Assembly: GCA_007135125.1 (NCBI GenBank)
Contig: SLJK01000057.1
Span: 3,612 to 67,611 of the forward strand
DNA length: 64,000 bases
Source: Syntrophomonadaceae bacterium
Lineage (GTDB): Bacteria; Bacillota; Dethiobacteria; DTU022; UBA8154
Reading direction: 5' to 3'
The position numbers and the translations under genes are program-made. The notes beneath the pieces are model-generated. The model searched no databases. It was given only the letters and a program-made list of their open reading frames with translations, and was not told the origin of the DNA. This document shows, piece by piece, positions 3 to 47,530 of the stretch (position 1 is the first letter of the stretch; every line of letters begins with the position of its first letter).

Positions 3-560
3 GTGGACTATGATTCGGTAGGCCAGACAGGTGCCATCATGGGTTCCGGTGGGATGATTGTAATGGATGAAACAACCTGTATGGTGGATATGGCACGCTT
101 TTTCCTTGATTTTGTGCAAAACGAATCCTGTGGTAAATGCGTTCACTGCCGCCTGGGCACCAAGAGAATGCTGGAGATTTTGACACGTATTACCGAGGGT
201 AAAGCTCAACCCGAAGAACTGGATCTGTTGGAAGAACTGGCCTATAACGTCAAGGAAGGATCACTGTGCGGTCTGGGGCAAACCGGCCCCAATCCTGTGC
301 TGACAACTCTTAAATATTTCCGCGATGAGTACGAAGCACATATTATGGATCGCAGTTGTCCGGCCAAGGTATGCCGAGAGCTTCTAACATTTACTATAGA
401 TCCGGAGTTATGTAATGGCTGCCGACGCTGTGTAAAGCGCTGTCCGACAGAATGCATTACGGGTGAAAAGAAAGAACCCCATGTTATTGACCAGGATAAG
501 TGCATCAAATGTGGAAATTGCTATGATGCTTGCAAGTTTGATGCCGTTATAATGGAGTAA
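3..560 (+). CDS. NADH dehydrogenase NuoF/HndC-like flavoprotein subunit, C-terminal part (5' partial at window edge)
   Basis: ORF open to the window start. ESCGKCxxCRxG motif typical of the NuoF N3 [4Fe-4S] site, followed by two CxxCxxCxxxCP ferredoxin motifs. Confidence 0.7.
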
Positions 561-608: not shown

Positions 609-3600
609 ATGAGTAAAGCACGAATTAACATAAATAGACAGGAACTTACTGGATATACCGACCAGACTATTTTAGAAGTTGCAAAAGAAAATAGCATAGA
701 AATTCCCACCCTTTGTTTTAGCGGCGAACTGGAAATATATGCTTCCTGCGGACTCTGCCTGGTTGAGGTAGAGGGAGCGCCTCGTCTCCTCAGGGCGTGC
801 GCCACAAAAATCACTGACGGGATGGTTATACAGACTGACAATGAAAAGATTAAAAAAGCTCGCAAATTGGCACTGGAGCTAATTCTTTCAGATCACGCAG
901 GAGACTGCCGCGCCCCCTGTGTGCTGGCCTGCCCTGCTAACTGTGATGCCCAGGGATATGCCGCCCTGGTGGCCAACGGCCAGTATAGGGAAGCATTGAA
1001 ATTGGTGAAAGAGTTCATGCCTATACCTGCTTGTATAGGGAGGGTTTGTCCGGCGCCCTGTGAGGACAATTGCCGCCGAAACCTAGTTGAAGATCCTGTC
1101 TCCATACGCTATTTCAAGCGTCTAATAGCTGATTTGGATTTAGCCAGTGATGATCCATATCGTCCGGAAGTAGAACCTGACACTGGAAAAAAGATAGCGG
1201 TGGTTGGCTCCGGCCCAGCGGGATTGACTGCTGCATATTTTCTACGGCGTAATGGTAACTCTGTAACCATATTTGAGTCTTTACCGGAGATGGGTGGTAT
1301 GCTGCGCTACGGTATCCCCGAGTACCGCCTTCCCAAGACCGTGCTGGATGCAGAAATTCAGCAGATCTTGGATCTGGGGGTGGAGGCAAAAACCGGTGTC
1401 CAATTGGGTGAGGATTTTAGTATTGATTACCTTTTCAAGAATGGTTTTGATGCTGTTTATTTGGCAATAGGTGCACAGAACAGCCGTAGGATGGGTGTTC
1501 CAGGTGAAGATATGCCCGGAATTTTAGGAGGAACAGAATTCTTAAGGGCGGTAATGCTTAATGAAGAAGTCAGCCTGGGAGAAAAGGTGGCCGTAATCGG
1601 TGGTGGAAATACAGCGATGGACGCTGCCAGGACAGCCAAGCGGCTGGGTTCAAAAGTCACCGTGGTTTATAGGAGGGCCAGGGAGCAGATGCCTGCTCAG
1701 GCAATAGAGGTGGACGAAGCAGAAGAAGAAGGAGTAGAGTTATACCTGCTGGCAAACCCGGTTAAAATCGAAGGGGACGGCAAAGTAGAAAAGATGGTTT
1801 GCCAAAAGATGCAGTTAGGAGAACCTGATGCATCGGGACGGCGTAGGCCCGAACCTATCCCTGATGAATATTTTACCCTGGAAGTGGATACTATCATCGC
1901 TGCCATCGGGCAGGATGTTGGAATTGAGAATATTAAGGATGATGTCGATATTGATAAGTGGAACACCATCCATATTGAAGAAGATACCTTTATCACCAAT
2001 GTTCCCGGTGTCTTTGCCGGTGGGGACGCTGTGACCGGCCCCGGAATAGCCATTGAAGCTATTGCTGCAGGGAAACGCGTCACCGAAGTAATTGAAAATT
2101 ACCTGGGCGGAAAAATGGCACCCTATAAAACTTATTATGATATTAAACAAGAAGATCTTACCGAAGAGGATTTTGCGGATAGGGAAAAACAGGAAAAAGT
2201 CAAAATGCCAATCACTGCTCCGGAGGTTCGTGTTCAGAACTTCCGTGAGGCAGAGCAGGGAATAAGCCCAGAGGATGCTTTGAAAGATGGACAGCGGTGT
2301 CTGGAGTGCGGTTGTTTTGATTCATTCGAGTGCAAACTTCGTGATTATGCTACAACCTACCAGGCCAGACCGGAACGTATCGGCGGAGAAAAACATGATT
2401 ATGAAACAGAGGTTCATCCCTTTATTATAAGAGACCAGAATAAATGTATTCTCTGTGGATTATGTGTACGAACCTGCAGTGAAATTATTGGGGCGGAGGC
2501 TCTGGGACTGGTTAACCGTGGATTTGATGCATATGTCAGCCCATCTTTAGACCTTCCGCTGGAGGAAACTTCCTGTATCGCTTGCGGTCAGTGTGTAGCG
2601 GCTTGCCCTACAGGTGCACTGGTTGAAAATATGCCCTTCGATAAGCCAGCTCCCTGGCAGTTTAAAGAAACGGTTTCTATTTGCGGTTACTGCGGTGTAG
2701 GATGCAGCCTGCAAGTGGAAACCATCGGTAATAAAATAGCCAGGATGGTGCCTTATGAAGGACCTGTCAATGAAAGCACTCTTTGTAGTAAAGGACGTTT
2801 CGGTTTCGATTTCGTTAATTCCGAGAACAGGTTAAAAACACCTCTCATCAAAGAAAACGGCCAACTTAAGGAGACAACCTGGAAAGATGCGCTTCTTTAT
2901 ATTTCCAAGAGAGCAAAGTCATTAAAGGCTCGCTTTGGCGGAGAAAGCATGGCTGTATTTGCCGGACCTCGCTACAGCAACGAGGAGAGCTACCTTATTC
3001 AAAAGTTTGCCCGTGGCGTTTTGGGCAGTAACAACATAAATAGCTTTGGCGAAAAGGACAATCCCCTGGCAGAGGTTTTGGGATGGGGAGCATCAACAAA
3101 TTCCTACCAGGAAATAGGTGCAGCTGATTTTATACTGGGCGTAGGAGTAGACTTTACAGACTACCCCATTGTTGCTTTAAAGATGAAGCTGGCCTCAGAA
3201 CAGGGTGGAAAAATGTGGTTGGTGGATAAAATAAAACCAAAGCTGGGCAGTTATGCCGAAAAAGTCTTTTTAGTTAATGAAAAAGCTGATACAGATATTT
3301 TTGTAGCTATGCTGGCCTATTCTTTACAAGAAGGCATTGTAGATAAAGGGTTTACAGGCACCTTTACATCTAATTTCAATGAGTTAAAAGAAAAACTTGA
3401 AAAGAAAAATATTGAGGAGCTGATAACCAACAGCGGCCTTACTAGAGATGACATCTCTACACTGGTGAAAGGTTATGCGGAAGCGAAAAAACCGCTACTG
3501 ATACTTGGTAGTAACAACTTGAGTTCCGAGGCAGCCCAGGTACTGGCCGGGCTAGCGATGCTGCTTGGCAAAGTGGGCAAGCCACGACAGGGAATTCTTA

Positions 3601-4334
3601 ACCTTCGAGGACGCTGTAACAGCCAGGGCATGCTTGATGCCGGTGTTTCTCCTTCTTATTTGAGCGGTTATCAAAAGGTAACTGATGAGCTCAGCAGGAA
3701 TAAATTTGCCCACACGTGGAAAGTCCAGCTGCCTCAAAAAGAGGGATTAAATACAGCGGAAGTACTGGATAACGTGGAAAATGGTAATATTAAGGGCTTA
3801 TTTGTCTTTGGTGAGGATCCAGACGCACCAACATCCCAAAAACTGGCTCAATCGGAATTTTTGGTAGTGCAAGACCTTTTCCTAACAGATCTGGCCAAAC
3901 AGGCTGATGTAGTTCTGCCAGCTGCCAGTTTTGCTGAAACAGAAGGAAGCTTTACAAATAGTGAGCGCCGGGTCCAAAAATTGCGGCCGGCCCTGGCATC
4001 CCCGGCCGGCAAACAAAATTGGGAAATAATGTTAGATTTAATGGAGATGACCGGGTTCCACCAGCAATTTTCATCGCCGGAAGATGTTTGGAATGAAATA
4101 AGGAAGTTATCACCTATTTTTGAAGAAATCACTTACGCCGAACTGGATAATGCTCCTTATTGGGGTGGTTCACCTGTATGCATGATTGACGAATTGGTTA
4201 ATGCCAACGGAAAACTAAAATTCATGCTGCCCGAAAAGGGAGTACCCGTTTTTGAGGAAATTACTATTGTTGACAGTGCTCTTAAATGGTACAGGGAATT
4301 TATGACGGAAAAAGGGCTTCAAAAACTGGTTTGA
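609..4334 (+). CDS. Multidomain Fe-S flavoprotein: 2Fe-2S ferredoxin N-terminus, GltD-like NAD(P)H/FAD domain, 2x[4Fe-4S], and a molybdopterin-oxidoreductase (NuoG/FdhA-like) domain with no apparent MGD C-terminal domain
   Basis: 1241-aa ORF. VVGSGPAGLTAAYFL Rossmann motif of glutamate synthase small-chain type. CxxCxxCxxxCP motifs. SICGYCGVGCS MopB Fe4S4 motif. No Sec/Cys-His active-site signature was visible. Confidence 0.6.
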   Translation: MSKARININRQELTGYTDQTILEVAKENSIEIPTLCFSGELEIYASCGLCLVEVEGAPRLLRACATKITDGMVIQTDNEKIKKARKLALELILSDHAGDCRAPCVLACPANCDAQGYAALVANGQYREALKLVKEFMPIPACIGRVCPAPCEDNCRRNLVEDPVSIRYFKRLIADLDLASDDPYRPEVEPDTGKKIAVVGSGPAGLTAAYFLRRNGNSVTIFESLPEMGGMLRYGIPEYRLPKTVLDAEIQQILDLGVEAKTGVQLGEDFSIDYLFKNGFDAVYLAIGAQNSRRMGVPGEDMPGILGGTEFLRAVMLNEEVSLGEKVAVIGGGNTAMDAARTAKRLGSKVTVVYRRAREQMPAQAIEVDEAEEEGVELYLLANPVKIEGDGKVEKMVCQKMQLGEPDASGRRRPEPIPDEYFTLEVDTIIAAIGQDVGIENIKDDVDIDKWNTIHIEEDTFITNVPGVFAGGDAVTGPGIAIEAIAAGKRVTEVIENYLGGKMAPYKTYYDIKQEDLTEEDFADREKQEKVKMPITAPEVRVQNFREAEQGISPEDALKDGQRCLECGCFDSFECKLRDYATTYQARPERIGGEKHDYETEVHPFIIRDQNKCILCGLCVRTCSEIIGAEALGLVNRGFDAYVSPSLDLPLEETSCIACGQCVAACPTGALVENMPFDKPAPWQFKETVSICGYCGVGCSLQVETIGNKIARMVPYEGPVNESTLCSKGRFGFDFVNSENRLKTPLIKENGQLKETTWKDALLYISKRAKSLKARFGGESMAVFAGPRYSNEESYLIQKFARGVLGSNNINSFGEKDNPLAEVLGWGASTNSYQEIGAADFILGVGVDFTDYPIVALKMKLASEQGGKMWLVDKIKPKLGSYAEKVFLVNEKADTDIFVAMLAYSLQEGIVDKGFTGTFTSNFNELKEKLEKKNIEELITNSGLTRDDISTLVKGYAEAKKPLLILGSNNLSSEAAQVLAGLAMLLGKVGKPRQGILNLRGRCNSQGMLDAGVSPSYLSGYQKVTDELSRNKFAHTWKVQLPQKEGLNTAEVLDNVENGNIKGLFVFGEDPDAPTSQKLAQSEFLVVQDLFLTDLAKQADVVLPAASFAETEGSFTNSERRVQKLRPALASPAGKQNWEIMLDLMEMTGFHQQFSSPEDVWNEIRKLSPIFEEITYAELDNAPYWGGSPVCMIDELVNANGKLKFMLPEKGVPVFEEITIVDSALKWYREFMTEKGLQKLV

Positions 4335-4393: not shown

Positions 4394-5278
4394 ATGGCAG
4401 CAAAAATTATTTCTGGTAAAGACGTAGCGGCGGAAATCAGGGCAGAATTAAAAGATCAGGTGGCAGATTTAAAGACAAAAGGTATTGTACCCGGGTTAGG
4501 TGTGGTCCTTGTAGGTGAAGATCCAGCATCGGTATCTTATGTTACCAGCAAGGCTAAAGGTTGTGAAGAAATTGGAATGTACGAAGAAACGGTTCGCCTT
4601 GATGCGGATACTCCTGAGGATGAAGTCCTGAAAGTAATCGATAGGATGAATAAAGATCCCAAGATCAGCGGGATCCTGGTTCAGCTTCCTCTCCCCGATC
4701 ATATCAGCGTAGAAAACGTTATCAGCTACATCTCCCCGGAGAAAGACGTTGATGGTTTTCACCCCGTCAACCTCGGCAAACTGTTACGAGGCGAACCCTG
4801 CCCACTACCCTGTACTCCTCATGGTGTCAAGCAGCTTCTGGAACGTTCAGGAAACGATCCTTCCGGCAAGCATGTAGTCATCTGTGGCCGCAGCAATATT
4901 GTGGGCAAACCGCTTGCAGCAATTCTTATGCAAAAAGCTAAAGGAGCCAATGCTGTGGTAACAGTGGTTCATACCGGTGCCAAAGATATACCCTATTATA
5001 CCAAGCAGGCTGATATCCTGGTGGCAGCTATGGGCAAGCCCGGAGCCATCACTGCAGACATGGTCAGTGAAGGAACTGTAGTTGTCGATGTAGGGGTTAA
5101 CCGGATTCCTGATGATACCAAAAAGAAAGGCTTCCGTCTTGCGGGAGATGTAGACTATGAACCCGTTGCCGAAAAAGCCTCTTACATTACCCCTGTGCCC
5201 GGTGGCGTAGGACCTATGACTGTAACTATGCTGCTTTATAATACGGTAGAAGCGGCTGTAAGACTTAACCAGGGTTAG
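4394..5278 (+). CDS. folD: Bifunctional methylene-THF dehydrogenase/methenyl-THF cyclohydrolase FolD (canonical copy)
   Basis: SYVTSKAKGCEE (YxxxK), KDVDGFHP, GRSNIVGKP and PVPGGVGPMT motifs all present. Strong RBS AAAGGAGGAGG upstream. Confidence 0.9.
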   Translation: MAAKIISGKDVAAEIRAELKDQVADLKTKGIVPGLGVVLVGEDPASVSYVTSKAKGCEEIGMYEETVRLDADTPEDEVLKVIDRMNKDPKISGILVQLPLPDHISVENVISYISPEKDVDGFHPVNLGKLLRGEPCPLPCTPHGVKQLLERSGNDPSGKHVVICGRSNIVGKPLAAILMQKAKGANAVVTVVHTGAKDIPYYTKQADILVAAMGKPGAITADMVSEGTVVVDVGVNRIPDDTKKKGFRLAGDVDYEPVAEKASYITPVPGGVGPMTVTMLLYNTVEAAVRLNQG

Positions 5279-5292
5279 GAGGTAGAACAATT

Positions 5293-6150
5293 TTGACTGC
5301 CAGGCTTATTAAAGGAGATGAGGTTGCCGAAGAAGTCAGGGCTGAAATTTCGTCAGAGCTAAAAGATCTATACGATGGCACTGGCTATGTAGCTGGGCTG
5401 GCAGTTATTGTTGTGGGAGAAAACCCTACTTCTTTAGCATATATTTCTAATTGTGAGAAACAGGGCGAAAAGATGGGGATTAGTATTCAAGTTCACCGTC
5501 TGGACCAAAATATATCTCAAGAAGAATTGCTTGAAATAATCGAAGAGCTAAATGATGATTTCTTCATACACGGTATTATGATCCAGATGCCCTTACCAGA
5601 ACATCTGGATCATAAAGTGATTGTAGAAACAATCGATCCGGACAAAGATGTTGAAGGAGTCCACCCGATTACTATGGGTAAACTTTTTAGTGATGAAAAA
5701 AGTTTTATACCATGTACTGCCCATAGTATTATGAAAATGATTGAACATACCAGGCAGCCTGTTTATGGAAAATCAGCAGTAATAATCGGCCGCAGCAATA
5801 TAGTAGGTAAACCGCTTTCTCTTTTACTTCTAAGAAGAAATGCTTCCATTACTATATGTCATACAGGCACAGTAAATTTACCAGATATCTGTCGGGAAGC
5901 AGATATAGTTGTGGCAGCAGCGGGCACTCCTTACATGGTAGAAGGAAACTGGATTAAGCAAGATGCAATTGTACTTGATGTTGGGGTTACCCAGGTGGAA
6001 GATAAAATGGTGGGTGATGTTAATTTCCAAGAATGCAGAGAAGTAGCCAGTTGGATTTCTCCTGTTCCCGGTGGGGTAGGGCCACTAACTATTACAATGC
6101 TGATGTGGAACACATTGGAAGCTTTTCGCAAAAAAATGGATCGAATTTAA
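5293..6150 (+). CDS. FolD-family paralog 2 (divergent; Cys where the catalytic Lys is expected)
   Basis: Full-length FolD fold with GRSNIVGKP and PVPGGVGP. AYISNCEKQGE replaces YVASKRK. KDVEG replaces KDVDG. TTG start after AGGAGG. Confidence 0.75.
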   Translation: MTARLIKGDEVAEEVRAEISSELKDLYDGTGYVAGLAVIVVGENPTSLAYISNCEKQGEKMGISIQVHRLDQNISQEELLEIIEELNDDFFIHGIMIQMPLPEHLDHKVIVETIDPDKDVEGVHPITMGKLFSDEKSFIPCTAHSIMKMIEHTRQPVYGKSAVIIGRSNIVGKPLSLLLLRRNASITICHTGTVNLPDICREADIVVAAAGTPYMVEGNWIKQDAIVLDVGVTQVEDKMVGDVNFQECREVASWISPVPGGVGPLTITMLMWNTLEAFRKKMDRI

Positions 6151-6273
6151 CGTTTCCTTGCGTAAAACATAGTAGTTAAACACCAGCAAATGCCGGGGGA
6201 TTCCTTTTGGATGGCCTATTCCCCCGGCATGTTACCTTTGAAAACATCTGGTGTTTTGAAGGGAGGTACAGAG

Positions 6274-7116
6274 TTGGCAGCAAATATTATTAGAGGAGAA
6301 ACTATTGCCCAAGAATTACATGACAATCTTAAACATGAAGTAGCAAAGTTAAAGGAAGACCGAGGAATAACTCCTTGCATGGCCATTATCGTGCTTAAAA
6401 GTCCTGTTTCCCGAATTCATGTAGCGCGCTTAAAAGAGAGAACAAGCCAGCAATTAGGAATAAAATGTCAAATATTTACCCTGCCGGAGACCACCACTGA
6501 GGAAGAGATAAACTATCTTACCGAACGTCTCAATACAGCTAAAGAAGTTCATGGTATCAATATACACCCCCTTACTCCCCATCTCAATCATACCCTTATT
6601 TCGCAGATGGTGGATCCCCGTAAAGATGTTGAAGGCCTAAACTTTTTAAATATGGGTGCCTTTTTGAGTGGGGATTTTAGGATGGTCCCGTTTGTAGCAA
6701 GAGGCATTATGAAATTAATCGAACACACGGGTGAAGATCTGGAAGGGAAAAGGGCTGTTGTTGTGGGACGCAGCCAGTTAGTCGGAGAACCAGTTTCCTT
6801 TTTGTTACTGGAACAAAATGCTACTGTCAGTGTGTGTCATTCCATGACCCCGGACCTATCCACTTTTACGAAAAAGGCTGATGTACTGGTCGTTTCAGCC
6901 GGTCAACCACGTATCATAAAAGGCAATATGGTCAAAGAAGGAGCCATCGTTATTGATGTTGGCGTTAATCAAGTTGGAACCAGGCTGATTGGCGATGTGG
7001 ATTATGATACCGTTAAAGATAAAGCAAGCTGGATTACTCCTGTACCGGGAGGAGTTGGTCCTGTAACCATAGCTATGCTCCTGGATAACCTTGTTAAAGC
7101 TGCCAAGTATTCATGA
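6274..7116 (+). CDS. FolD-family paralog 3 (divergent; His in place of the motif Tyr, altered DVDG region)
   Basis: GRSQLVGEP and PVPGGVGPVT conserved. RIHVARLKER in place of YVASKRK. KDVEGLNF in place of KDVDGFHP. Probable TTG start at 6274 after GGGAGG; the ORF track extends it to 6190. 4-nt overlap with xseA. Confidence 0.7.
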   Translation: MAANIIRGETIAQELHDNLKHEVAKLKEDRGITPCMAIIVLKSPVSRIHVARLKERTSQQLGIKCQIFTLPETTTEEEINYLTERLNTAKEVHGINIHPLTPHLNHTLISQMVDPRKDVEGLNFLNMGAFLSGDFRMVPFVARGIMKLIEHTGEDLEGKRAVVVGRSQLVGEPVSFLLLEQNATVSVCHSMTPDLSTFTKKADVLVVSAGQPRIIKGNMVKEGAIVIDVGVNQVGTRLIGDVDYDTVKDKASWITPVPGGVGPVTIAMLLDNLVKAAKYS

Positions 7117-8375
7117 GAGAAGCAGTAGTATATACCGTTACCCAGCTTAATCAACATATAAAAAGATTGCTTCTAAAAGACAACCTACTTCAAGAAGTTC
7201 TGGTGGTAGGAGAGATATCTAATTACAAACATCATACTCCTTCCGGACATATCTATTTCACTCTGAAAGATGAAAATAGCATACTACGCTGCGTCTTTTT
7301 CCGCCATAAAAACCGTGAACTAACATTTATTCCTGCTGAGGGAATGAGAGTCCTGGCCGGGGGAAATATTTCTCTTTATGAGCGCGGCGGAATCTACCAG
7401 CTTTACATTGCCAGTTTGGAACCTGAAGGACTTGGAGCTCTATATCTGGCTTATGAACAGTTAAAGGAAAGACTCGCCCAAGAAGGGCTTTTTGAAATAC
7501 AACATAAACGATTATTACCTTTTATCCCTCAAAAAATAGGCCTCATTACTTCTTCTTCCGGGGCCGCGGTAAGGGATTTTTTATCTGCACTGGGTAGAAG
7601 ATTTCCTTGCGTAGAAGTGCTCTTTAAGCCGGCAGCTGTACAGGGGACAGAAGCTCCGGCTCAGATCATAGATGCACTGGAAAAATTAGATCAAGAAGAT
7701 TTGGATGTTATTGTTATCACAAGAGGGGGCGGTTCCTTAGAAGAACTGTGGGCCTTGAATGATGAAAAGCTGGCCAGGGCAATTTTCCATTCCGGAACAC
7801 CTGTGGTGAGCGCAGTGGGTCATGAAACGGATTATACCATTGCTGATTTTGTAGCAGATATGAGAGCTTCAACCCCAACTGCCGCCGCCGAACTTATAAC
7901 TCCCCAAAAAGACGAACTGTTGAAAAACATTGAAGTTTTTAAATCTCGATTACAGGATGCCTGGCGATATAAGCAAAGAGAGAGAGACAATTTACTGGAA
8001 AGATTTGAACGTGCCGTAGCATTCAGGTATCCTTATGATAAAATAAATACCGGTAACCAGAGATTGGATGAACTCTGGGGGCGGCTGACCAGAAATATAT
8101 CAGTCCAGCTGCAAAAAAAAGCAGATAACTTACAGGGCAGCGCGAATAGGCTTAATAATTTAAACCCTTTGCAGGTCTTAAATAGAGGCTTCGCCTTTGT
8201 CATGGACAAAGAAAAGAAGCCGGTAAACGGTATTTCTGCCCTGGATCCGGGGCAAAATATTGAAGTGCTATTTAGTGACGGAATTGCTTTCTGTACAGTG
8301 GACAAAATTAGACAGAAAAAACTTTCTTCGGGAGAAGGGGGAGCAAATTGCCTGAAAAAGAAACGGAGCAGATGA
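7113..8375 (+). CDS. xseA: Exodeoxyribonuclease VII large subunit
   Basis: Length and N-terminal OB-fold region (VYTVTQLNQHIKRLL) typical of XseA. Synteny folD-xseA-xseB-ispA. Confidence 0.85.
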   Translation: MREAVVYTVTQLNQHIKRLLLKDNLLQEVLVVGEISNYKHHTPSGHIYFTLKDENSILRCVFFRHKNRELTFIPAEGMRVLAGGNISLYERGGIYQLYIASLEPEGLGALYLAYEQLKERLAQEGLFEIQHKRLLPFIPQKIGLITSSSGAAVRDFLSALGRRFPCVEVLFKPAAVQGTEAPAQIIDALEKLDQEDLDVIVITRGGGSLEELWALNDEKLARAIFHSGTPVVSAVGHETDYTIADFVADMRASTPTAAAELITPQKDELLKNIEVFKSRLQDAWRYKQRERDNLLERFERAVAFRYPYDKINTGNQRLDELWGRLTRNISVQLQKKADNLQGSANRLNNLNPLQVLNRGFAFVMDKEKKPVNGISALDPGQNIEVLFSDGIAFCTVDKIRQKKLSSGEGGANCLKKKRSR

Positions 8376-8581
8376 GCTTCGAAGAAGCATTACATAAACT
8401 GGAAGAATTAACAGAAAAGATGGAAAGGGGAGAGCTTACCCTGGAGGAATCCCTAAAATCTTTTGAGGAAGGTATACAGCTAACCAGCCATTGTCGAAAA
8501 CTGCTTGCAGAAGCTGAATATAAAGTAGAAAAACTATTGCAAACCGGAGAAAAAACTGAATTTGAGGAGTTTACTAGCTGA
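8348..8581 (+). CDS. xseB: Exodeoxyribonuclease VII small subunit
   Basis: 77-aa coiled-coil protein (SFEEALHKLEELTEKMERGELTLEESL). Overlaps the xseA 3' end. Confidence 0.85.
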   Translation: MPEKETEQMSFEEALHKLEELTEKMERGELTLEESLKSFEEGIQLTSHCRKLLAEAEYKVEKLLQTGEKTEFEEFTS

Positions 8582-8627: not shown

Positions 8628-9563
8628 ATGAAATTTCAAGATTTAATTGAAGATCGAATCAGGTCGGTAGACGCGGCTCTGAATTTTTATCTTCCGGGTG
8701 AAAATGTTTATCCTCAAACTATTCATCGTGCCATTCGCTATAGCGTTTTTGCAGGAGGAAAACGCATGAGGCCGTTATTGGCACTCTTTACCGCAGAACT
8801 TTTTAACCCTGACTGGAAAAGGGTGCTCCCAGCCAGCTGTGCCCTGGAACTAATTCATACCTATTCTCTGATTCATGATGACCTGCCTGCCATGGATAAT
8901 GATGATTACAGAAGAGGAAAGCCAACTTCTCATAAAGTTTTTGGGGAAGGTACTGCCATATTAGCCGGAGATGCTCTTCTAACATATGCTTTTAAAATTT
9001 TGGCCGGTCACACTTTTACTGAAAATGACTTCAATTATTCATATAATCACAATGTCACTTCACAACTAAAATTAAAAGTTATCTCTGATATATCAAGAGC
9101 TGCAGGTTTAGGTGGAATGATAAGCGGACAGGTAGTGGATATGGAATCAGAGTGCAAACAAGTTGACGAAGCCACTTTAGACTATATCAACATGCATAAA
9201 ACCGGGGCCCTGTTAGCTGTTTCCGCCAGAGCTGGAGCAATGCTGGGGGGGTGTTCTGATGAAGAAGCCCACATTATTAGTGTTTTTGGAACATACCTGG
9301 GAAAGGGCTTTCAACTTGTCGATGATCTTCTTGATGTGGAAGGTAATGAAGCAAGGATAGGAAAAGCCACTGGCAGTGACAGTAAGCAAGGAAAGGCAAC
9401 CTATATTTCTATATATGGCTCGGAGAAAATACGATATTTGCGGGATGAGCTTTATCAAAAGGCCCTTGAATCACTTGAACCGATTAAAAACAGGAACATT
9501 GGCAGCTCCAATCTTATGAATATCAGGGAACTGGCACGCACGATCCTTTACCGGGATCATTAG
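8628..9563 (+). CDS. ispA: Farnesyl/geranyl diphosphate synthase
   Basis: Two DDxxD motifs (LIHDDLPAMDNDDYRRG; FQLVDDLLDVEG). Confidence 0.9.
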   Translation: MKFQDLIEDRIRSVDAALNFYLPGENVYPQTIHRAIRYSVFAGGKRMRPLLALFTAELFNPDWKRVLPASCALELIHTYSLIHDDLPAMDNDDYRRGKPTSHKVFGEGTAILAGDALLTYAFKILAGHTFTENDFNYSYNHNVTSQLKLKVISDISRAAGLGGMISGQVVDMESECKQVDEATLDYINMHKTGALLAVSARAGAMLGGCSDEEAHIISVFGTYLGKGFQLVDDLLDVEGNEARIGKATGSDSKQGKATYISIYGSEKIRYLRDELYQKALESLEPIKNRNIGSSNLMNIRELARTILYRDH

Positions 9564-9574
9564 TGGTCTGCCTT

Positions 9575-10190
9575 GTGAGAACTGTTAAATTGTGCTATAA
9601 TTCTGTTGGATGTAGGTGGTGCAGTATCCTAGTTGGCAAACACTTCTGAAAACGGGCCTAAAAATCCGTTTAAGGGCACATCAATGAAGTCCCTGGTGCT
9701 GGCCGCTGAAGCCCAGTTGGGGGCTGGTGCTGGGGGTTAAGAAGGATGGGGCGATCTACAAAGGCATGTAGGCGTTGACCCTACCTTCGCGGAGACCTAA
9801 GATGGTGGTTCTTATCGAAAGGTAAGTTCTACTGCTTGGGGAAGAACCTGTGTGAGGCAGACGCTTTGCACAGTGTAGCCTGCCTTGAGTGGTGACGGGG
9901 GATAAGTGCTGTCTTTCAGGACTGGGAAACCGTCATTGAAAAGAGGCTAGGAAGTGTTCAATGCCAGCGAGGAAAACTCCTAGGCTGTTCCCATGGGGAG
10001 GCTCTATGGGGATTAAAGTGTGGTCTTAGTGGTAATCCAGCCCTGCTGTTGGCAACATGGCAGAGATGCTCTTAAAAGGTAACTGCCTTTCCGGTGACGG
10101 TGGGTGGGCATCTGGGAAATCCTGCTGGACCTTAAGCCGCAAAGTTTACTCATAGGGCTGCCACCTGCGTCTTTTTGTTATATCGTTGAG
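9575..10190 (+). ncRNA. ole: OLE (ornate large extremophilic) RNA, about 600 nt
   Basis: A ~630-nt gap with no ORF between ispA and a 4-TM membrane protein gene (oapA) that sits directly upstream of dxs. This is the characteristic ispA-ole-oapA-dxs-tlyA-nadK-recN arrangement described for OLE RNA loci. The sequence is GC-balanced and structured-looking. I could not run a covariance search. Confidence 0.7.
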
Positions 10191-10198
10191 GTGTTTAT

Positions 10199-10777
10199 TT
10201 GGCCAGAAGAACTGCAAAACAGAAAAAACGTGCATTGCGCTGGGCAATTATGGTTACTTTTTGGACTTTTCTGGTAGCCTTCGTTTTTGCACTGACCATG
10301 CGCTTCATTCTTCATGGTATACAGTCGATCATTATTTCTTTCCTGCTTCTTTTATTTATTATTTTTATCGGCGTACTCTTCGATACTATAGGCACGGCAG
10401 TAACAGCTGCCAACGAAACGCCGTTCCATTCCAAAGCCTCCAAAAAAGTTTATGGTGCGCAAAAAGGGATTTACCTGGTCCGGTATGCTGACCAGGTAGC
10501 TAACTTTTGCAATGATATGATTGGGGATATTAGCGGCGTGGTTAGCGGCGTGGTTGGTGCAGTAATTATTTTCAACCTGGTCCTGGCCCGGCCGGAACTG
10601 AGTGAAATATATTTAAGTATTATTTTAACCGCCGTAGTGGCTGCACTAACCGTGGGGGGAAAAGCGCTAGGAAAATATTTAGCAATCAGCAGGCCCACAG
10701 AAGTAGTGTTATTGTTTGCCCAGGTGCTTACCACTATAGAAAAAGTATCTTTAAGAAAGAAACAAAACAGGTATTAA
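10199..10777 (+). CDS. oapA: OLE-associated protein A (small polytopic membrane protein)
   Basis: 192 aa with about 4 predicted TM segments. TTG start after GAGGTG. Position immediately 3' of the OLE candidate and 5' of dxs. Confidence 0.65.
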   Translation: MARRTAKQKKRALRWAIMVTFWTFLVAFVFALTMRFILHGIQSIIISFLLLLFIIFIGVLFDTIGTAVTAANETPFHSKASKKVYGAQKGIYLVRYADQVANFCNDMIGDISGVVSGVVGAVIIFNLVLARPELSEIYLSIILTAVVAALTVGGKALGKYLAISRPTEVVLLFAQVLTTIEKVSLRKKQNRY

Positions 10778-10786
10778 ATTAATTAG

Positions 10787-12697
10787 GTGACGAAAAGCGG
10801 TGATCAATTGAGCAAACTGTTATCTGACATAGAACATCCCCAGTCTTTAAAAAAACTCAATAGCCAAGAGCTCAATCAACTTGCCCAAGAAATAAGGGAA
10901 TTAATCATCAACGTTGTTGCAAAAAAAGGAGGGCATTTAGCTTCCAGCCTGGGAGTTGTAGAACTTACTGTTGCCCTGCACAGCATTTTCCAAGCTCCTA
11001 AAGATAAAATTGTGTGGGATGTTGGACACCAGTGCTATGCCCATAAAATTTTGACCGGCAGAAAAGATTTATTCCAGGAAATGCGCAGCCTGGGTGGAAT
11101 AAGCGGTTTTCCTCGCAGAGAAGAAAGTCCTTATGATCCTTTTGGTACTGGTCACAGCAGCACTTCTCTCTCGGCAGCGCTGGGGATTGCCTTGGCCAGA
11201 GATCTGCGCCAGGAAGATTATAAAGTTATAGCTGTCATCGGTGACGGAGCCTTAACCGGTGGAATGGCTCTGGAAGCGCTTAACTATGCCGGAGAAATCG
11301 ATACTGATCTAATTGCTATTTTAAACGATAATAAACTTTCCATTGACCAAAATGTGGGAGGGTTGCCATCTCACCTGGCCAGGTTAAGGTCAGACCCCAA
11401 ATATTATCGCTTAAAAGAGGAATTGGAATTTTTTTTGGAACGTATTCCAGCTATTGGCAAAACTATGTTACGTTCCGCAGAACGCTTAAAAGACAGCGTA
11501 AAATATCTCTTGGTACCGGGTGTTCTTTTTGAAGAACTGGGATTTACGTACTTAGGACCGGTTGACGGACATAATATTTATAATCTTCAAGATTTGATGC
11601 GGCAGGCGCAAAAAATAAAAGGGCCTGTATTACTGCATGCAGTTACTCAAAAGGGTAAAGGTTATTCCCTCGCGGAAAAAGAGCCCTGTTACTTTCATGG
11701 AATCGGTCCATTCCATAAAGATACCGGGAAATTGCTGGTATCAGATTCCTCCAGCATCTCATATAGTGAAATTTTTGGTTCCTCCTTATTAAAAATGGCT
11801 GAAGATGATGAATCTATCGTTGCCATAACCGCTGCCATGGCCAGCGGGACAGGTTTAGAACCTTTTTCCCAGAAATACTCCCAACGTTTTTATGATGTAG
11901 GAATTGCCGAGCAAAATGCTGTAACTATGGGTGCTGGTATGGCTGCAGGTGGACGAAAACCTGTCATAGCAATCTACAGTACTTTTTTACAAAGAGCTTA
12001 TGATCAGATCCTGCATGATGTCTGCCTGCAAAAATTGCCTGTTGTTTTTGCCATTGACAGGGCAGGTGTTGTAGGAGAAGATGGTGAAACGCATAACGGC
12101 CTTTTTGACTATGCTTACCTCCGACATATGCCTGAAATTGTAGTAATGGCACCCACAAATGGCCAAGAAATTACCGCCATGCTTAAAACTGCTCTTACAC
12201 TGCAGGGACCTTCTGCAATAAGATATCCCAAGGGAAAAACATCGCCCCTTTCAAGTACAAAGATAGAAACATTGCTTCCTGGCAAAGGGGTTCTAGTAAA
12301 AGAAGGCAATGATCTTCTTATCCTGGCAGCAGGATCAATGCTTCCACGGGCCTTGGAAGCCTGGGAAGCGTTAAAACGGGAAAATATTTATTGTAGTGTT
12401 ATTAATCCGCGTTTTATTAAACCACTGGATAAAGAATTAATCTGTAAATGGGCTCAAACCTGCAAAAAAGTACTGACAGTAGAAGAGCATGTGTTAGCCG
12501 GAGGTTTTGGCAGTGCTGTCTTGGAGCTTTTTGAAGAAGAAAACATGACACAAATCAAAGTTAAACGTATGGGCATAAAGAATCCCTTTACAGGACAGGG
12601 CAGTCGAGAACAGATTTTAAAGCTAAATGGTCTTTCTACTGAGGGGATTGTGCAGGAGGCGATAAAGCTCTGTCAGGCAACGGCAAACATAAATTAA
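10787..12697 (+). CDS. dxs: 1-deoxy-D-xylulose-5-phosphate synthase
   Basis: 636 aa with TPP-binding GDG...N region (IGDGALTGGMALEALN) and transketolase-like C-terminus. The start may be the downstream in-frame TTG (MSKLLSD...). Confidence 0.9.
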   Translation: MTKSGDQLSKLLSDIEHPQSLKKLNSQELNQLAQEIRELIINVVAKKGGHLASSLGVVELTVALHSIFQAPKDKIVWDVGHQCYAHKILTGRKDLFQEMRSLGGISGFPRREESPYDPFGTGHSSTSLSAALGIALARDLRQEDYKVIAVIGDGALTGGMALEALNYAGEIDTDLIAILNDNKLSIDQNVGGLPSHLARLRSDPKYYRLKEELEFFLERIPAIGKTMLRSAERLKDSVKYLLVPGVLFEELGFTYLGPVDGHNIYNLQDLMRQAQKIKGPVLLHAVTQKGKGYSLAEKEPCYFHGIGPFHKDTGKLLVSDSSSISYSEIFGSSLLKMAEDDESIVAITAAMASGTGLEPFSQKYSQRFYDVGIAEQNAVTMGAGMAAGGRKPVIAIYSTFLQRAYDQILHDVCLQKLPVVFAIDRAGVVGEDGETHNGLFDYAYLRHMPEIVVMAPTNGQEITAMLKTALTLQGPSAIRYPKGKTSPLSSTKIETLLPGKGVLVKEGNDLLILAAGSMLPRALEAWEALKRENIYCSVINPRFIKPLDKELICKWAQTCKKVLTVEEHVLAGGFGSAVLELFEEENMTQIKVKRMGIKNPFTGQGSREQILKLNGLSTEGIVQEAIKLCQATANIN

Positions 12698-12789
12698 CTG
12701 AACGCGACGGAAAAACTAAAATTCGCCTTGACATATTCCTGGTAGAAAGTGAACTTGCACCAAATCGCAGCAAGGCTCGCGGGGAAATA

Positions 12790-13530
12790 ATGGCTGGCAA
12801 TGTATACGTGGATAATATCAAGCAGGACAAGCCCGGTTTTCTTGTTTCTTCTAAATCAAAAGTTGAAATTAGGGGTAAGTGTAATCCTTACGTTAGCAGG
12901 GGCGGGTTAAAACTGGAGAAAGCCCTGCAAAGCTTTTCTGTTTCCCTTACAGGAAAAACGGTACTGGATATCGGCGCATCTACAGGAGGCTTTACAGATT
13001 GTGCCCTGCTGCACGGGGCAGCTAAGGTTATCGCTCTGGATGTTGGTTATGGACAGTTGGATTGGAAATTAAGAAATCATCCGGATGTAGTAATCATGGA
13101 ACGTTTTAATGTGAGATATTTGAATGAGAAGCATCTACCTTTTAAACCGCAAGTAGCAACAGTTGATGTATCATTTATATCTTTGAAATTGGTACTGCCA
13201 GTCCTTTTTTCTTTAGAGTTCGAACAAATTATTGCCCTGGTAAAGCCCCAGTTTGAAGCTTCCCCTGACCGGGTAGGAAAACGGGGAGTTGTCAGGGATT
13301 TAAACATACATAAAGAAATTCTGGAAAAGGTAGTTGATATTTCCGTTGAACACAATTATATCGCACAGAACCTTACCTACTCTCCGATAAAGGGACCACA
13401 AGGCAATATTGAATACTTTATTTATCTAGAAAAGCCTAAAAACAAGGCAAGTGACACGGTACATCAGGAACCAAAGTCTTGTTTATCTGTTGAAAATGTA
13501 GTTCAGGAAGCTCACCGCAAATTATATTAA
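12790..13530 (+). CDS. tlyA: TlyA-family 16S/23S rRNA 2'-O-methyltransferase (hemolysin A-like); true start lies upstream of the listed ATG
   Basis: FtsJ-like methyltransferase core (DIGASTGGFTD). The S4 domain (IRLDIFLVESELAPNRSKARGEIMAGNVYVD) is encoded in frame upstream of ATG 12790, where no ATG/GTG/TTG exists. Confidence 0.8.
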   Translation: MAGNVYVDNIKQDKPGFLVSSKSKVEIRGKCNPYVSRGGLKLEKALQSFSVSLTGKTVLDIGASTGGFTDCALLHGAAKVIALDVGYGQLDWKLRNHPDVVIMERFNVRYLNEKHLPFKPQVATVDVSFISLKLVLPVLFSLEFEQIIALVKPQFEASPDRVGKRGVVRDLNIHKEILEKVVDISVEHNYIAQNLTYSPIKGPQGNIEYFIYLEKPKNKASDTVHQEPKSCLSVENVVQEAHRKLY

Positions 13531-13589: not shown

Positions 13590-14438
13590 TTGTTTAAAGG
13601 TATAGGAATTGTCCCAAACTGGCAAAAAAATAATGTGCCGGAAGTTTTGGAGGAGATAAAATCTTTTTTCCGAAAACAAGATGTTCCTGTTTTTGTTGAG
13701 CCTGCCGCAGAACCTCTATTAAACCTGCCCACCCCTGTTATGGAATTCTCCGCATGGTCTAAAACTACAGACCTGGTTATTGTTGTCGGCGGTGATGGAA
13801 CTTTTTTGAGAGTAGCCAGGGAGTTAGCTCATACTTCACTGCCAATCTTGGGAATTAATTTAGGACATAAGGGGTTTTTGGCAGAGATTGAAGTTGATAA
13901 ATTGCTTCCCTCTTTACAAAAGCTGCTCGACGGCAATTTTTGCACAGGGGAACGGATGATGTTAAATACAGAAATTATCAGAGACAACCAGTCCATTGCT
14001 TCTTTTCTCTCCCTGAACGATGTGATCATTTCCAGGGGACCTTTTTCCAGGATTATTAAGTTGGATACCTACATAAATGAAGATTTTCTGGAAAGTTACC
14101 CTGGCGATGGAATGATTATCGCGAGCCCCACGGGCTCAACTGGTTATTCTCTTTCTGCAGGTGGCCCCATAGTTCACCCAGGCCTAAATGTTTTAGTAGT
14201 TACTCCCATATGCCCCCATCTACTCTACCAACGTTCTGTAATAGTTGACAAAGAAGATATTATTTCTATTGACGTAGCGACTTCTTCTGCAAAAATTTTT
14301 TTGACACTGGATGGGCAGGAGGGATTTTCCCTTAGCTATCGTGATTACATAAAAGTCCGTAAGGCAGACTATGTAACAAAAGTAATAACTTTTCCTGAAA
14401 ACAATTTTTATAAATTGCTGCATGATAAACTGATCTAA
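13590..14438 (+). CDS. nadK: NAD kinase
   Basis: GGDGT motif (VVGGDGTFL) and NE/D short motif. TTG start after GAAGGAG. Confidence 0.85.
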   Translation: MFKGIGIVPNWQKNNVPEVLEEIKSFFRKQDVPVFVEPAAEPLLNLPTPVMEFSAWSKTTDLVIVVGGDGTFLRVARELAHTSLPILGINLGHKGFLAEIEVDKLLPSLQKLLDGNFCTGERMMLNTEIIRDNQSIASFLSLNDVIISRGPFSRIIKLDTYINEDFLESYPGDGMIIASPTGSTGYSLSAGGPIVHPGLNVLVVTPICPHLLYQRSVIVDKEDIISIDVATSSAKIFLTLDGQEGFSLSYRDYIKVRKADYVTKVITFPENNFYKLLHDKLI

Positions 14439-14521: not shown

Positions 14522-16225
14522 GTGCTCTTAATGCTTAATTTGCGTGATTTTGCACTGATCGATTCTCTTACCCTGGATTTTTATCCCGGGTTGAATGTCC
14601 TAACTGGAGAAACCGGGGCAGGAAAATCAGTTATTATCGGTGCGATTGGTCTTATTTTGGGCGAAAGGGCTTCGACTGAGCATATAAGGGCTGGCAGCGA
14701 GCAGGCTTTTCTGGAGGCAGTTCTTTCTTTAGCTGATGCTCCTTCCCAGCTTAAAACAATAATGGAGCAGCATGGGATACCTGTTGAGGAAGAAATTATT
14801 ATATCCAGGGAAATATCTATAAGTGGTCGCAATATCTGCCGCGTAAACGGGCGCACCGTACCTCTAACGACACTAAAAGAACTCGGAAATTACTTAATTG
14901 ACCTTCACGGGCAGCACAGTCATCAATCTCTTCTGAAAACCGAGAGGCATCTTTTTCTTTTAGACGAGTTTGGTGACCTTGAGCTAATACAAACCAAACA
15001 AAAGCTCCAGAAACTATATGATCGGCGTCAAGAGGTTGCCGAAAAATTAAATTACCTGGGTGCCAGTGCGGATGAAAGGCTGAGACAGCTTGAATTGCTG
15101 CGATTTCAAAGGGACGAAATTATGAGCGCTTCTGTGAGTGCTGCCGAAGAACAAGAGCTATCTAAAAGACTTTCCCTGTTAGATAACAGGGAAAAACTAC
15201 TTCAAGTTTTAAACAAAGCCTATAACGATATATATGGTGGTGAATCATCCTCTATTTCTTGCCTGGACACTATAAATAACATTCAAGCAGAGCTTTCTTC
15301 TTTCAGCGACCTGGACTCTCAGATCGCTTATTTTGTGGATTCATTGGAACAGATAAGCGTCAGCCTTAATGAACTGGGACATGACTTATTTGGTTATCTG
15401 GAAAATTTAGAAGTTTTTCCCCAGGAAAGAGAAGAAATTGAAAGCAGGTTGGAATTGTACCGTCGCCTAAAAAATAAATACGGTGCTACGGTGGAAGAGC
15501 TGCTTTCCTTTGCTTCACGGTGCAAGCAAGAACTTGAAGCGCTCGAAGAAAACGAAAATAAGGCACTGCAGCTGGAAAAAGAACTGCAAGCCATAGAAGA
15601 GGAACTGCACAATGTTTCAGAACACCTTACTTCTATGCGGAAAAATGTTGCCCATCTACTGGAAAAAGAAGTTCAATCCATCATTGAGGAACTGGGTATG
15701 GAAAAGGGACGCTTTCATGTAAACATTTCTTCGCAAAACTCGATACAGCGTTCCGGAAAAGAAAAGGTGGAGTTTTTATTTTCTGCCAACCCGGGCGAAC
15801 CGCTAAAATCACTGGCCAAGATTATCTCTGCTGGTGAAATGTCTAGAGTTATGCTGAGCTTAAAATGCATACTGGCCAAGCAGGACAATATCCAGACCCT
15901 TATCTTTGATGAGATTGACAGCGGAATTGGCGGGAGGACTATCCAAAAGGTTTCAGAAAAAATGGCTAGTTTGGGCAATAATCACCAGGTAATTTGTGTT
16001 ACTCACAGCCCGCATATAGCTAGCGCAGCTCATCATCAATTTTATATTTTTAAAGAATTTAGGGAGGAACGGACGGTAACCTTTGTCGAGAAAATTAGCG
16101 GGGAAGAAAGGCTTTCAGAGATAGCACGTCTTTTAGATGGAGAAAGTACAAGCACAATTACCAGAAAACATGCACAGGAACTTTTACAAAAAGCAAAATA
16201 TATGGCAAACAATCAGGAGCATTAA
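14522..16225 (+). CDS. recN: DNA repair protein RecN
   Basis: Walker A (GETGAGKS), long coiled-coil, C-terminal signature/Walker B region. Probable start at ATG 14531. Confidence 0.9.
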   Translation: MLLMLNLRDFALIDSLTLDFYPGLNVLTGETGAGKSVIIGAIGLILGERASTEHIRAGSEQAFLEAVLSLADAPSQLKTIMEQHGIPVEEEIIISREISISGRNICRVNGRTVPLTTLKELGNYLIDLHGQHSHQSLLKTERHLFLLDEFGDLELIQTKQKLQKLYDRRQEVAEKLNYLGASADERLRQLELLRFQRDEIMSASVSAAEEQELSKRLSLLDNREKLLQVLNKAYNDIYGGESSSISCLDTINNIQAELSSFSDLDSQIAYFVDSLEQISVSLNELGHDLFGYLENLEVFPQEREEIESRLELYRRLKNKYGATVEELLSFASRCKQELEALEENENKALQLEKELQAIEEELHNVSEHLTSMRKNVAHLLEKEVQSIIEELGMEKGRFHVNISSQNSIQRSGKEKVEFLFSANPGEPLKSLAKIISAGEMSRVMLSLKCILAKQDNIQTLIFDEIDSGIGGRTIQKVSEKMASLGNNHQVICVTHSPHIASAAHHQFYIFKEFREERTVTFVEKISGEERLSEIARLLDGESTSTITRKHAQELLQKAKYMANNQEH

Positions 16226-25046: not shown

Positions 25047-25550
25047 ATGCTCAAACCTGGAATTGATTCTTTGGAAAGGGGAAAAAAAGAAAAAAAAGAA
25101 GAACCCCAGGAGCTTCCCAAACAAGAAGAGAAGCTCAAATTCAAGGTGCGCTTTGATTACAAGGGCAAACCAAAGCCAGCCCGCTTTTTCTTCGGTGGCA
25201 AAAGAACAGAAGAAGTAGCCCATGAGATCAGGGAACAACAGCTCGGATTATGGCGTAATGTACCATTACAGGGCATATTTGTAGAGCATATTGATCTGGG
25301 TGATATTTATTTTGTTTACGATGATGATCTAGAAAGCGAAATGGCCTTTGCTCCCCTGGAACTGGTTGTCTCAGCTGATTCCTTTGAAGATATGCTGCGC
25401 TTTATTGTAAGAGAAGAATTTAGACGTATTGAAATACTTGAACCGACCAAAATTGTTTTAAGCACCAGGGAGGCGGAAAGGATGCTTTTTAAAATTAACG
25501 AAATCCTGCAAAACAAACTCTTGACCCGTAAAAGGGAGAATCATCGTTAA
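25047..25550 (+). CDS. Hypothetical protein, Lys/Glu-rich N-terminus
   Basis: 167-aa ORF with RBS GGAAGGGG. No family recognised. Confidence 0.4.
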   Translation: MLKPGIDSLERGKKEKKEEPQELPKQEEKLKFKVRFDYKGKPKPARFFFGGKRTEEVAHEIREQQLGLWRNVPLQGIFVEHIDLGDIYFVYDDDLESEMAFAPLELVVSADSFEDMLRFIVREEFRRIEILEPTKIVLSTREAERMLFKINEILQNKLLTRKRENHR

Positions 25551-47453: not shown

Positions 47454-47530
47454 CGGGGCGTGGCGCAGTTTGGTAGCGCGCTTGACTGGGGGTCAAGAGG
47501 TCGCAGGTTCAAATCCTGTCGCTCCGACCA
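47454..47530 (+). tRNA. tRNA-Pro (anticodon GGG), CCA encoded
   Basis: Manual fold. Acceptor CGGGGCG/CGCUCCG. D-arm GCGC..GCGC. Anticodon stem CUUGA/UCAAG with loop CUGGGGG. T-arm GCAGG-UUCAAAU-CCUGU. 3' ACCA. Confidence 0.85.

Follow-up and report, generated by a model that had tools for sequence, protein, structure and literature searches.

An OLE RNA gene with a short P9 arm and its partner gene oapA in a Syntrophomonadaceae bacterium

The ispA-oapA interval and its RNA gene

The window, by which we mean the whole 64,000-nt stretch of Syntrophomonadaceae DNA analysed here, contains an interval of 635 nt between the stop of ispA (9563) and the TTG start of an ORF of 192 aa (10199). Neighbouring genes were named by Pfam and NCBIfam, and the locus is organised as follows.

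4394-5278, 5293-6150 and 6190-7116: three tandem folD-type genes (Pfam/NCBIfam)
7113-8375: xseA (Pfam/NCBIfam)
8348-8581: xseB (Pfam/NCBIfam)
8628-9563, + strand: ispA (farnesyl diphosphate synthase), the upstream neighbour; NF045485 at 320.7 bits (cutoff 275), and PF00348
9600-10180, + strand: OLE RNA gene, 581 nt by the Rfam boundaries (RF01071)
10199-10777, + strand: oapA, 192 aa, with four transmembrane helices and a DxxxD motif
10787-12697, + strand: dxs, starting 9 nt past the oapA stop; TIGR00204 at 816 bits
12790-13530: tlyA, TlyA-family methyltransferase (Pfam/NCBIfam)
13590-14438: nadK, NAD kinase (Pfam/NCBIfam)
14522-16225: recN (Pfam/NCBIfam)

An earlier note on this DNA had described a GC-balanced gap of about 630 nt with no plausible ORF, and both observations were borne out. 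The only ORFs touching the gap are two short ones of 57 aa (10104-10277) and 101 aa (10186-10491) that overlap oapA out of frame; together with a third small ORF at 10471-10734 (- strand), they were set aside as out-of-frame by-products of the OLE and oapA sequences. The G+C content of the gap is 50.4%, compared to 44.0% for the whole window. When the whole window was scanned with Rfam models at gathering thresholds, two matches were returned, a tRNA (47454-47527) and OLE (RF01071). The OLE match lies on the + strand at 9600-10180, has a score of 466.3 bits (gathering score 50; E 1e-133, Rfam cmscan), and spans model positions 1-616 of 616 with no truncation. The covariance-model search confirmed the note's claim of an OLE RNA in this position: a full-length OLE RNA lies in the ispA-oapA gap, with a score far beyond chance. 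A routine Rfam scan would find this gene, and the finding in itself is annotation: a gap without annotation in a genome derived from a metagenome receives an OLE RNA and oapA in their correct places.

Gene order was compared over 80 reference-genome loci encoding a relative of the 192-aa protein, and each neighbour was counted where the flank sufficed. Upstream of ole, ispA was present in 65 of 71 loci, while dxs and tlyA were found downstream in 60 of 75 and 68 of 71 loci, respectively, giving a synteny of 80-96% for these three genes. The commonest order, xseA-xseB-ispA-(ole)-oapA-dxs-tlyA(-nadK), recurs in about 70 genomes. The flanking genes in the window are those that the note had listed in its ispA-ole-oapA-dxs-tlyA-nadK-recN locus, an order common in the family, and oapA directly precedes dxs, as it had also stated. 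Contig SLAW01000070.1 of a sister assembly (GCA_007126665.1) matches the window at about 99.9% identity. The assemblies nearest to it bear the labels Syntrophomonadaceae, Dethiobacter or Bacillota, and several of them come from soda-lake sediments.

The score of the window OLE (466 bits) falls within the range of 17 other full-length OLEs (449-558 bits). In an 18-species alignment with OLEs from 17 other genomes, it could be aligned throughout, and nearly all invariant positions are kept. RNAalifold, applied to this alignment as an independent prediction, gave a consensus fold into which the window sequence fits; of its 152 pairs, 92 show compensatory changes. P1-P8, P10-P15 and all conserved sequence blocks are present in the window OLE. 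The elements referred to below are these.

9615-9624 and 10158-10165, + strand: the two strands of P1
9653-9668, + strand: P4 hairpin with its A-rich loop L4, CCUAAAAAU, conserved in the 18-species alignment
9674-9689, + strand: J4a/5 segment GGGCACAUCAAUGAAG, the 5' half of the OapC k-turn, adjoining the P4a region (alignment to the model)
9708-9717, + strand: loop L5, GAAGCCCAGU, with an invariant GCCCAG block in the alignment
9759-9768, + strand: loop L6, CAAAGGCAUG, with an invariant GGCAUG block in the alignment
9795-9841, + strand: P7, of normal length in the alignments to the model and to the 18 species
9847-9873, + strand: P8, of normal length in the same alignments
9890-9938, + strand: truncated P9, with the proximal stem and internal loop kept and the distal arm replaced
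10043-10063, + strand: P13 hairpin, the predicted OapB docking site, CUGCUG-U-UG-GCAA-CAUGGCAG, by inspection of the cmscan alignment
10091-10100, + strand: P14.1 hairpin with a GUGA tetraloop (cmscan alignment)

By inspection, the P13 hairpin of the window OLE ends in a GNRA tetraloop preceded by U(bulge)-U-G. The B. halodurans OLE co-crystal has a U498-U499-G500-GUGA layout at the OapB site (PMC7936274), so the U(bulge)-U-G-GNRA arrangement is the same in both RNAs. The P14.1 GNRA hairpin, which was described in the same study as a weak secondary OapB site (PMC7936274), also has its counterpart here. At J4a/5, the C85-G144 pair of the B. halodurans k-turn is essential for OapC (PMC9723947); inspection with the numbering of that paper showed that the equivalent pair is kept (AUC...AAG), and that the U84-G145 wobble is replaced by U-A. 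The same segment carries a rare G-to-A change, AUCGAUGAAG to AUCAAUGAAG (AUCGAU to AUCAAU), which was seen in 6 of 133 OLEs, all of the window's immediate lineage, with G in the remaining 127. Judged by these sequence features, the predicted OapB and OapC sites are both intact in the window OLE. An OapA site has been mapped to the P4a region, next to J4a/5.

Elements of two inter-RNA contacts seen by cryo-EM are likewise conserved in the alignment. The A-rich L4 loop forms dimer bridge B1 via A-A contacts in the cryo-EM structures (PMC12286853, PMC12265935), and L5 and L6 are elements of dimer bridge B2 (PMC12286853).

The short P9 arm

Compared to the full-length OLE class (RF01071, including H. 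halodurans, C. acetobutylicum and C. botulinum), the window shares the full-length model match and all conserved blocks, the L4, L5 and L6 loops, the k-turn, the P13 GNRA hairpin with its bulge, the P14.1 GNRA loop, a proximal promoter and the downstream oapA-dxs. It differs in the rare J4a/5 substitution, in a missing C at the base of P9, and in P9 itself, where the class has a P9.3 arm with a palindromic GGCC loop and the window OLE has a 19-nt hairpin with a non-palindromic loop. The RNA and its OapA belong to a known class and are unremarkable within it, save for the missing distal P9 arm.

In the cmscan alignment, distal P9 appears as a local end, with 13 nt in place of 44 model positions. 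Folding placed a 19-nt hairpin here (9905-9923) with a non-palindromic UCUUU loop, and neither a P9.3 arm nor a GGCC kissing loop was found in the window OLE by cmscan, by folding or in a survey of P9 lengths. That survey measured the length between two invariant anchors in 76 sequences, comprising the genome loci, the window and L001 (the window's contig copy). The lengths are sharply bimodal, with 13 of 76 short (42-52 nt) and 63 long (78-94 nt). GGCC occurs in 61 of the 63 long P9s and in none of the 13 short ones, and when the long P9s were folded it lay in the terminal loop in 59 of 63, with TCGA there in one. All short P9s keep the proximal stem and internal loop and end in a 3-8 bp hairpin whose loop is non-palindromic; pairing persists in these hairpins while their sequences vary. 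Seven short-P9 loci could be placed on an OapA tree, where they fall within one clade of eight tips, and a metagenome scan found 86 further stretches fitting the short-P9 pattern, many from soda-lake sediment.

The arm that is lost has a described role in the dimer. L9.3 forms a symmetric kissing loop (bridge B3), in which GGCC covaries with other palindromes (PMC12286853), and the same P9 contact was reported as a fourth dimerisation centre, the "P9 arch" (PMC12265935). With no distal P9 arm, the window OLE cannot make bridge B3 (the P9 arch) in the way seen in structures 9MCW and 9LCR.

The window OLE was also compared with two published OLE variants. Variant 1, mostly from the TANB77 clade, has P7, P8 and P9 shortened and has often lost the OapB site (PMC11332333); it shares the short P9 with the window OLE, which however keeps P7, P8 and the OapB site. 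An assignment to variant 1 was rejected on these grounds and on the score, which is in the full-length range. Variant 2 (RF39) has no P7 or P8 (PMC11332333), whereas the window OLE has both. It is thus a form short only in P9, with P7, P8 and the OapB site kept alongside, and score-based binning would not separate such forms: 466 bits would fall in the "full-length" bin of PMC11332333 (at least 390 bits), although the model used in that paper is not Rfam's. Because the published variants shorten P9 too, a long P9 with a GGCC loop is a common rather than a defining OLE feature.

One further difference lies at the base of P9, where the window OLE lacks a near-invariant C between 9938 and 9939. 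This C closes the base of P9; 17 of the 18 OLEs in the alignment have it, and so do all 86 short-P9 copies from metagenomes. A reading of its absence as a lineage trait was rejected, as the sister contig SLAW01000070.1 and all of those metagenome copies carry the C. The likeliest cause of the missing C is an error of assembly or a change of very recent date.

It could be argued that the loss of P9.3, the missing C, which is a deletion unique to the window, and the J4a/5 substitution at a position where nearly all OLEs have G are signs of erosion in a decaying, non-functional relic. We consider this highly improbable. The score lies inside the range of the 17 full-length OLEs and all other conserved blocks and stems are intact, the sister assembly carries the C, and a promoter, a Shine-Dalgarno sequence and an intact oapA are all in place (see below). 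Moreover, the short P9 is common to a whole clade and to the 86 metagenome stretches, and its small hairpin is kept by differing, compensating sequences, which argues for selection rather than decay.

Predicted transcription of ole and identity of OapA

Two signals for expression were located on either side of the RNA.

9573-9601, + strand: promoter-like site for ole, with -35 TTGTGA (9573-9578), a 17-nt spacer and extended -10 TGcTATAAT (9593-9601)
10188-10193, + strand: Shine-Dalgarno GAGGUG, 5 nt ahead of the oapA TTG start, read from the sequence

The promoter site has 10 of 12 consensus matches plus the TG extension in a consensus scan, and it predicts a start of ole a few nt ahead of the P1 stem. 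The regional promoter scan returned 9 sites against 8.3 expected, which alone is not above chance. Across species, 59 of 64 loci (92%) have an extended -10 in the 60 nt that precede OLE, compared to 6% of random positions, and the strict form TGnTATAAT occurs in 62.5% of loci, compared to a background of 0.3%; a chance match was rejected on this test of position. For B. halodurans ole, a proximal promoter was validated experimentally, with a start site near P1 (PMC3413148), and the conserved position of the extended -10 agrees with it. The promoter of the RNA and the absent distal P9 arm are details that the earlier note had missed.

OLE ends 18 nt ahead of the oapA start (10180 to 10199) on the same strand, and a scan of the region between OLE and oapA found no intrinsic terminator, so co-transcription of the two is likely. 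The same arrangement, a gap directly upstream of oapA-dxs on the same strand with no intrinsic terminator found before oapA, is also what would be expected if the 635 nt were a long regulatory leader of oapA-dxs, such as a riboswitch or attenuator, and not a stand-alone non-coding RNA. We give this reading hardly any weight, since the only Rfam family reaching its gathering score in the interval is OLE, at full length and with no match to a riboswitch family, and since OLE in B. halodurans exists as a distinct RNA species and is very stable, its half-life being about 3 h (PMC3413148). We retain the stand-alone OLE RNA.

The small four-helix protein downstream, which the note had taken for OapA, the OLE-associated protein A, has four hydrophobic segments and a single DxxxD motif, D106-MIG-D110, within FCNDMIGD. 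Both of its termini are basic: residues 1-18 include 7 K/R but nothing acidic, and 6 K/R lie in the C-terminal segment 160-192, with 5 more in the loop at 70-103. It also carries the block TVGGKALGK. In an alignment with 16 relatives, whose identity goes down to 43%, neither D106 nor D110 varies, FCND-x-x-GD and TVGGK-x-x-GK are likewise invariant, and no proline occurs in the TVGGKxxGK block. The Pfam CNNM model (PF01595) matched residues 50-183 with 22.5 bits (E 1e-4), below its threshold of 28.4 bits. No NCBIfam or PADLOC model matched the protein, Pfam detected no CBS or CorC domains in it, and sequence searches of the PDB with the protein and with a 16-sequence profile gave nothing relevant. 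An AlphaFold2 model built on the relatives' alignment was all-helical with a mean pLDDT of 76.8. When it was compared with the PDB by Foldseek, the top three matches were all MtCorB, an archaeal CNNM protein (7M1T_B, 7M1T_A and 7M1U_B; E 0.013-0.068, probability 0.99-1.00), and the fourth match was about 40-fold worse (E 2.8). The CorB match is nevertheless modest, with a best E of 0.013 and a query-normalised TM of 0.43-0.46.

The sub-threshold CNNM score, the four helices, DxxxD and the CorB match are properties published for OapA, which is a small protein of about 21 kDa with no soluble domains. In a CNNM search, OapA was the next-best cluster after MpfA (Fernando and Breaker 2024, PMC11332333); the same work described four transmembrane helices, a DxxxD motif absent from CNNM domains and the lack of the conserved CNNM proline, and found the M. 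thermophilus CorB crystal structure to be the top structural match to the predicted fold of OapA (PMC11332333). The known OapA of H. halodurans (BH2780) has the same size (about 190-200 aa), four transmembrane helices, DxxxD and basic cytoplasmic clusters, and shares with the window protein the distant CNNM similarity, CorB as best structural match and the position right after ole. The window OapA is only about 40% identical to Bacillaceae orthologues; for example, comparison with the ole-adjacent protein of Halalkalibacter wakoensis gave 40% identity (E 8e-42).

The decisive test of identity was linkage. A search over one genome per GTDB species turned up relatives of the 192-aa protein in at least 583 stretches, from which 17 loci were chosen across Bacilli and Clostridia. 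They include Aeribacillus, Thalassobacillus, Halalkalibacter, Paenibacillus, Fervidibacillus, two Clostridium species and Heliorestis, as well as assemblies labelled Moorellaceae, Oscillospiraceae, Congzhengia and Petromonas. In all 17 loci a full-length OLE (449-558 bits) was found on the same strand, ending just before the gene of the homologue. Given that all 17 loci have a full-length OLE immediately ahead of the homologue's gene, the 192-aa protein is OapA, by linkage as well as by the published criteria (PMC11332333), and the note's assignment stands.

MpfA, CorB and other CNNM transporters (PF01595) have a similar transmembrane fold and weak sequence similarity to the window protein, but they have three transmembrane helices with a CBS pair and CorC domains, whereas the window protein has four helices, DxxxD and neither domain. 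With 22.5 against 28.4 bits and no other domains, it is not a strict member of the PF01595 family. That it is an ordinary stand-alone cation transporter of the CNNM/MpfA type lying beside OLE by chance would accord with the Pfam CNNM E-value, with CorB as best fold match and with database labels on some relatives ("CBS domain containing-hemolysin-like protein" or "CNNM domain-containing protein"), but is next to inconceivable for a protein of 192 aa without CBS or CorC domains, scoring under the CNNM gathering threshold and carrying a motif that CNNM domains do not have, whose homologues are OLE-linked in every one of the 17 genomes.

Proposed role of the module and its short-P9 form

We are highly confident that 9573-10777 constitutes an ole-oapA module, with a promoter, an OLE RNA, transcription that probably continues into oapA and dxs, and an OapA whose role is assigned by analogy. 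In this scheme, a sigma-A-type extended -10 promoter would drive synthesis of an OLE RNA of roughly 570-580 nt, and transcription would probably run on into oapA and dxs. The latter part of the transcript would give OapA, a small membrane protein with four predicted helices and a distant relative of the transmembrane (CNNM) domain found in the divalent-cation transporters MpfA and CorB.

OapA has been reported to bind OLE cooperatively and to localise the RNA to the membrane (Block et al. 2011, as cited in PMC12265935). If the module works as in Halalkalibacterium halodurans, the window OapA would bind OLE and hold the RNA at the membrane, OapB would bind to the GNRA hairpin of P13, and OapC to the k-turn. 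The ribonucleoprotein so formed may help the cell withstand stresses that include cold, short-chain alcohols, too much Mg2+ and a poor carbon source. The most likely route, again judged from other species, is that the ribonucleoprotein regulates a CNNM-like cation transporter or substitutes for its regulatory domains; OapA itself would probably act as a CNNM-like divalent-cation transporter, with the RNA in place of the regulatory domains of MpfA.

The clade-wide loss of the P9 arch is the sole aspect of this locus that adds anything beyond the known class. The OLEs of the clade, mostly from soda-lake and digester Bacillota assemblies, may be a distinct natural subtype that has been lumped with "full-length" OLEs, one that keeps the protein-binding sites, P7 and P8 and has lost the P9.3 arm with its palindromic kissing loop. 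We put this forward tentatively, as a suggestion drawn from sequence comparison that is somewhat less probable than its opposite. As distal P9 is lost in the clade, any OLE dimer there must rely on the L4 and L5/L6 contacts alone. If the subtype is real and its RNAs are functional, the P9 arch (bridge B3) would be dispensable for OLE function, and the OLE dimer of the clade would either be held by those two remaining contacts or be replaced by another assembly.

Natural variants that are missing defined structural elements are useful because OLE is among the largest of those conserved bacterial RNAs whose biochemical function has yet to be established. A clade with the predicted OapA, OapB and OapC sites but without the P9 arch would provide a ready-made test of the arch and of the third dimer contact.

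The base of P9 and the J4a/5 segment

At 9938/9939, where P9 has its base, the OLE RNA gene of the window lacks a single near-invariant C that the sister assembly GCA_007126665.1 has. This C was present in all 86 of the 86 metagenomic OLEs of the short-P9 form, which lacks the distal P9 arm and its GGCC kissing loop, and its absence at 9938/9939 is probably an assembly error. In J4a/5, the segment holding the 5′ half of the OapC-bound k-turn, position 9683 showed a G-to-A substitution (AUCGAUGAAG to AUCAAUGAAG), which lies within the k-turn region and adjoins a mapped OapA site. Of 133 OLE sequences only 6 carry this substitution, and each of the 6 is a close relative of the window.

In the neighbour-joining tree of OapA, the membrane-protein partner of OLE, Heliorestis acidaminivorans (reference locus L024), whose P9 is long and contains GGCC, is nested next to the short-P9 clade (L003-L012 and L020). 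P9 loss may thus be more recent than the clade itself, or the neighbour-joining placement of Heliorestis may be a long-branch artefact.

Genes downstream of ole

The tlyA ORF as called from ATG 12790 aligns with the TlyA model only from model position 23 onwards, and the tlyA frame stays open upstream of that codon (12700-12792, + strand), where the missing start of the S4 domain is encoded (KIRLDIFLVESELAPNRSKARGEIMAG...). No ATG, GTG or TTG occurs in this open frame upstream of 12790; the start is likely to be non-canonical, for example ATT at 12721.

Further downstream are the following genes:

25047-25550, + strand, 167-aa ORF between rluB and cmk, with no Pfam match
27153-29252, + strand, 699-aa IspH (LytB) fused to four S1 RNA-binding domains

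The IspH-S1 fusion adds a second gene of the isoprenoid pathway; about 17 kb separate it from ole, which lies upstream.

Putative one-carbon genes at the 5′ end of the window

3-560, + strand, NADH-dehydrogenase-F-type 4Fe-4S protein, fragment
609-4334, + strand, 1241-aa fusion downstream of that fragment
4394-7116, + strand, three tandem folD-type genes (Pfam; 294, 285 and 308 aa)

Each of the three folD-type genes contains both the tetrahydrofolate dehydrogenase and cyclohydrolase domains, and xseA lies directly downstream of the trio. Three such paralogues in tandem are unusual. In the 1241-aa fusion, a 2Fe-2S domain is joined to a GltD-like pyridine-nucleotide-disulphide oxidoreductase and to a molybdopterin oxidoreductase; this architecture looks like that of an NAD(P)H-linked formate dehydrogenase. 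Taken together, the formate-dehydrogenase-like fusion and the folD genes suggest a Wood-Ljungdahl-type cluster at this end of the window.
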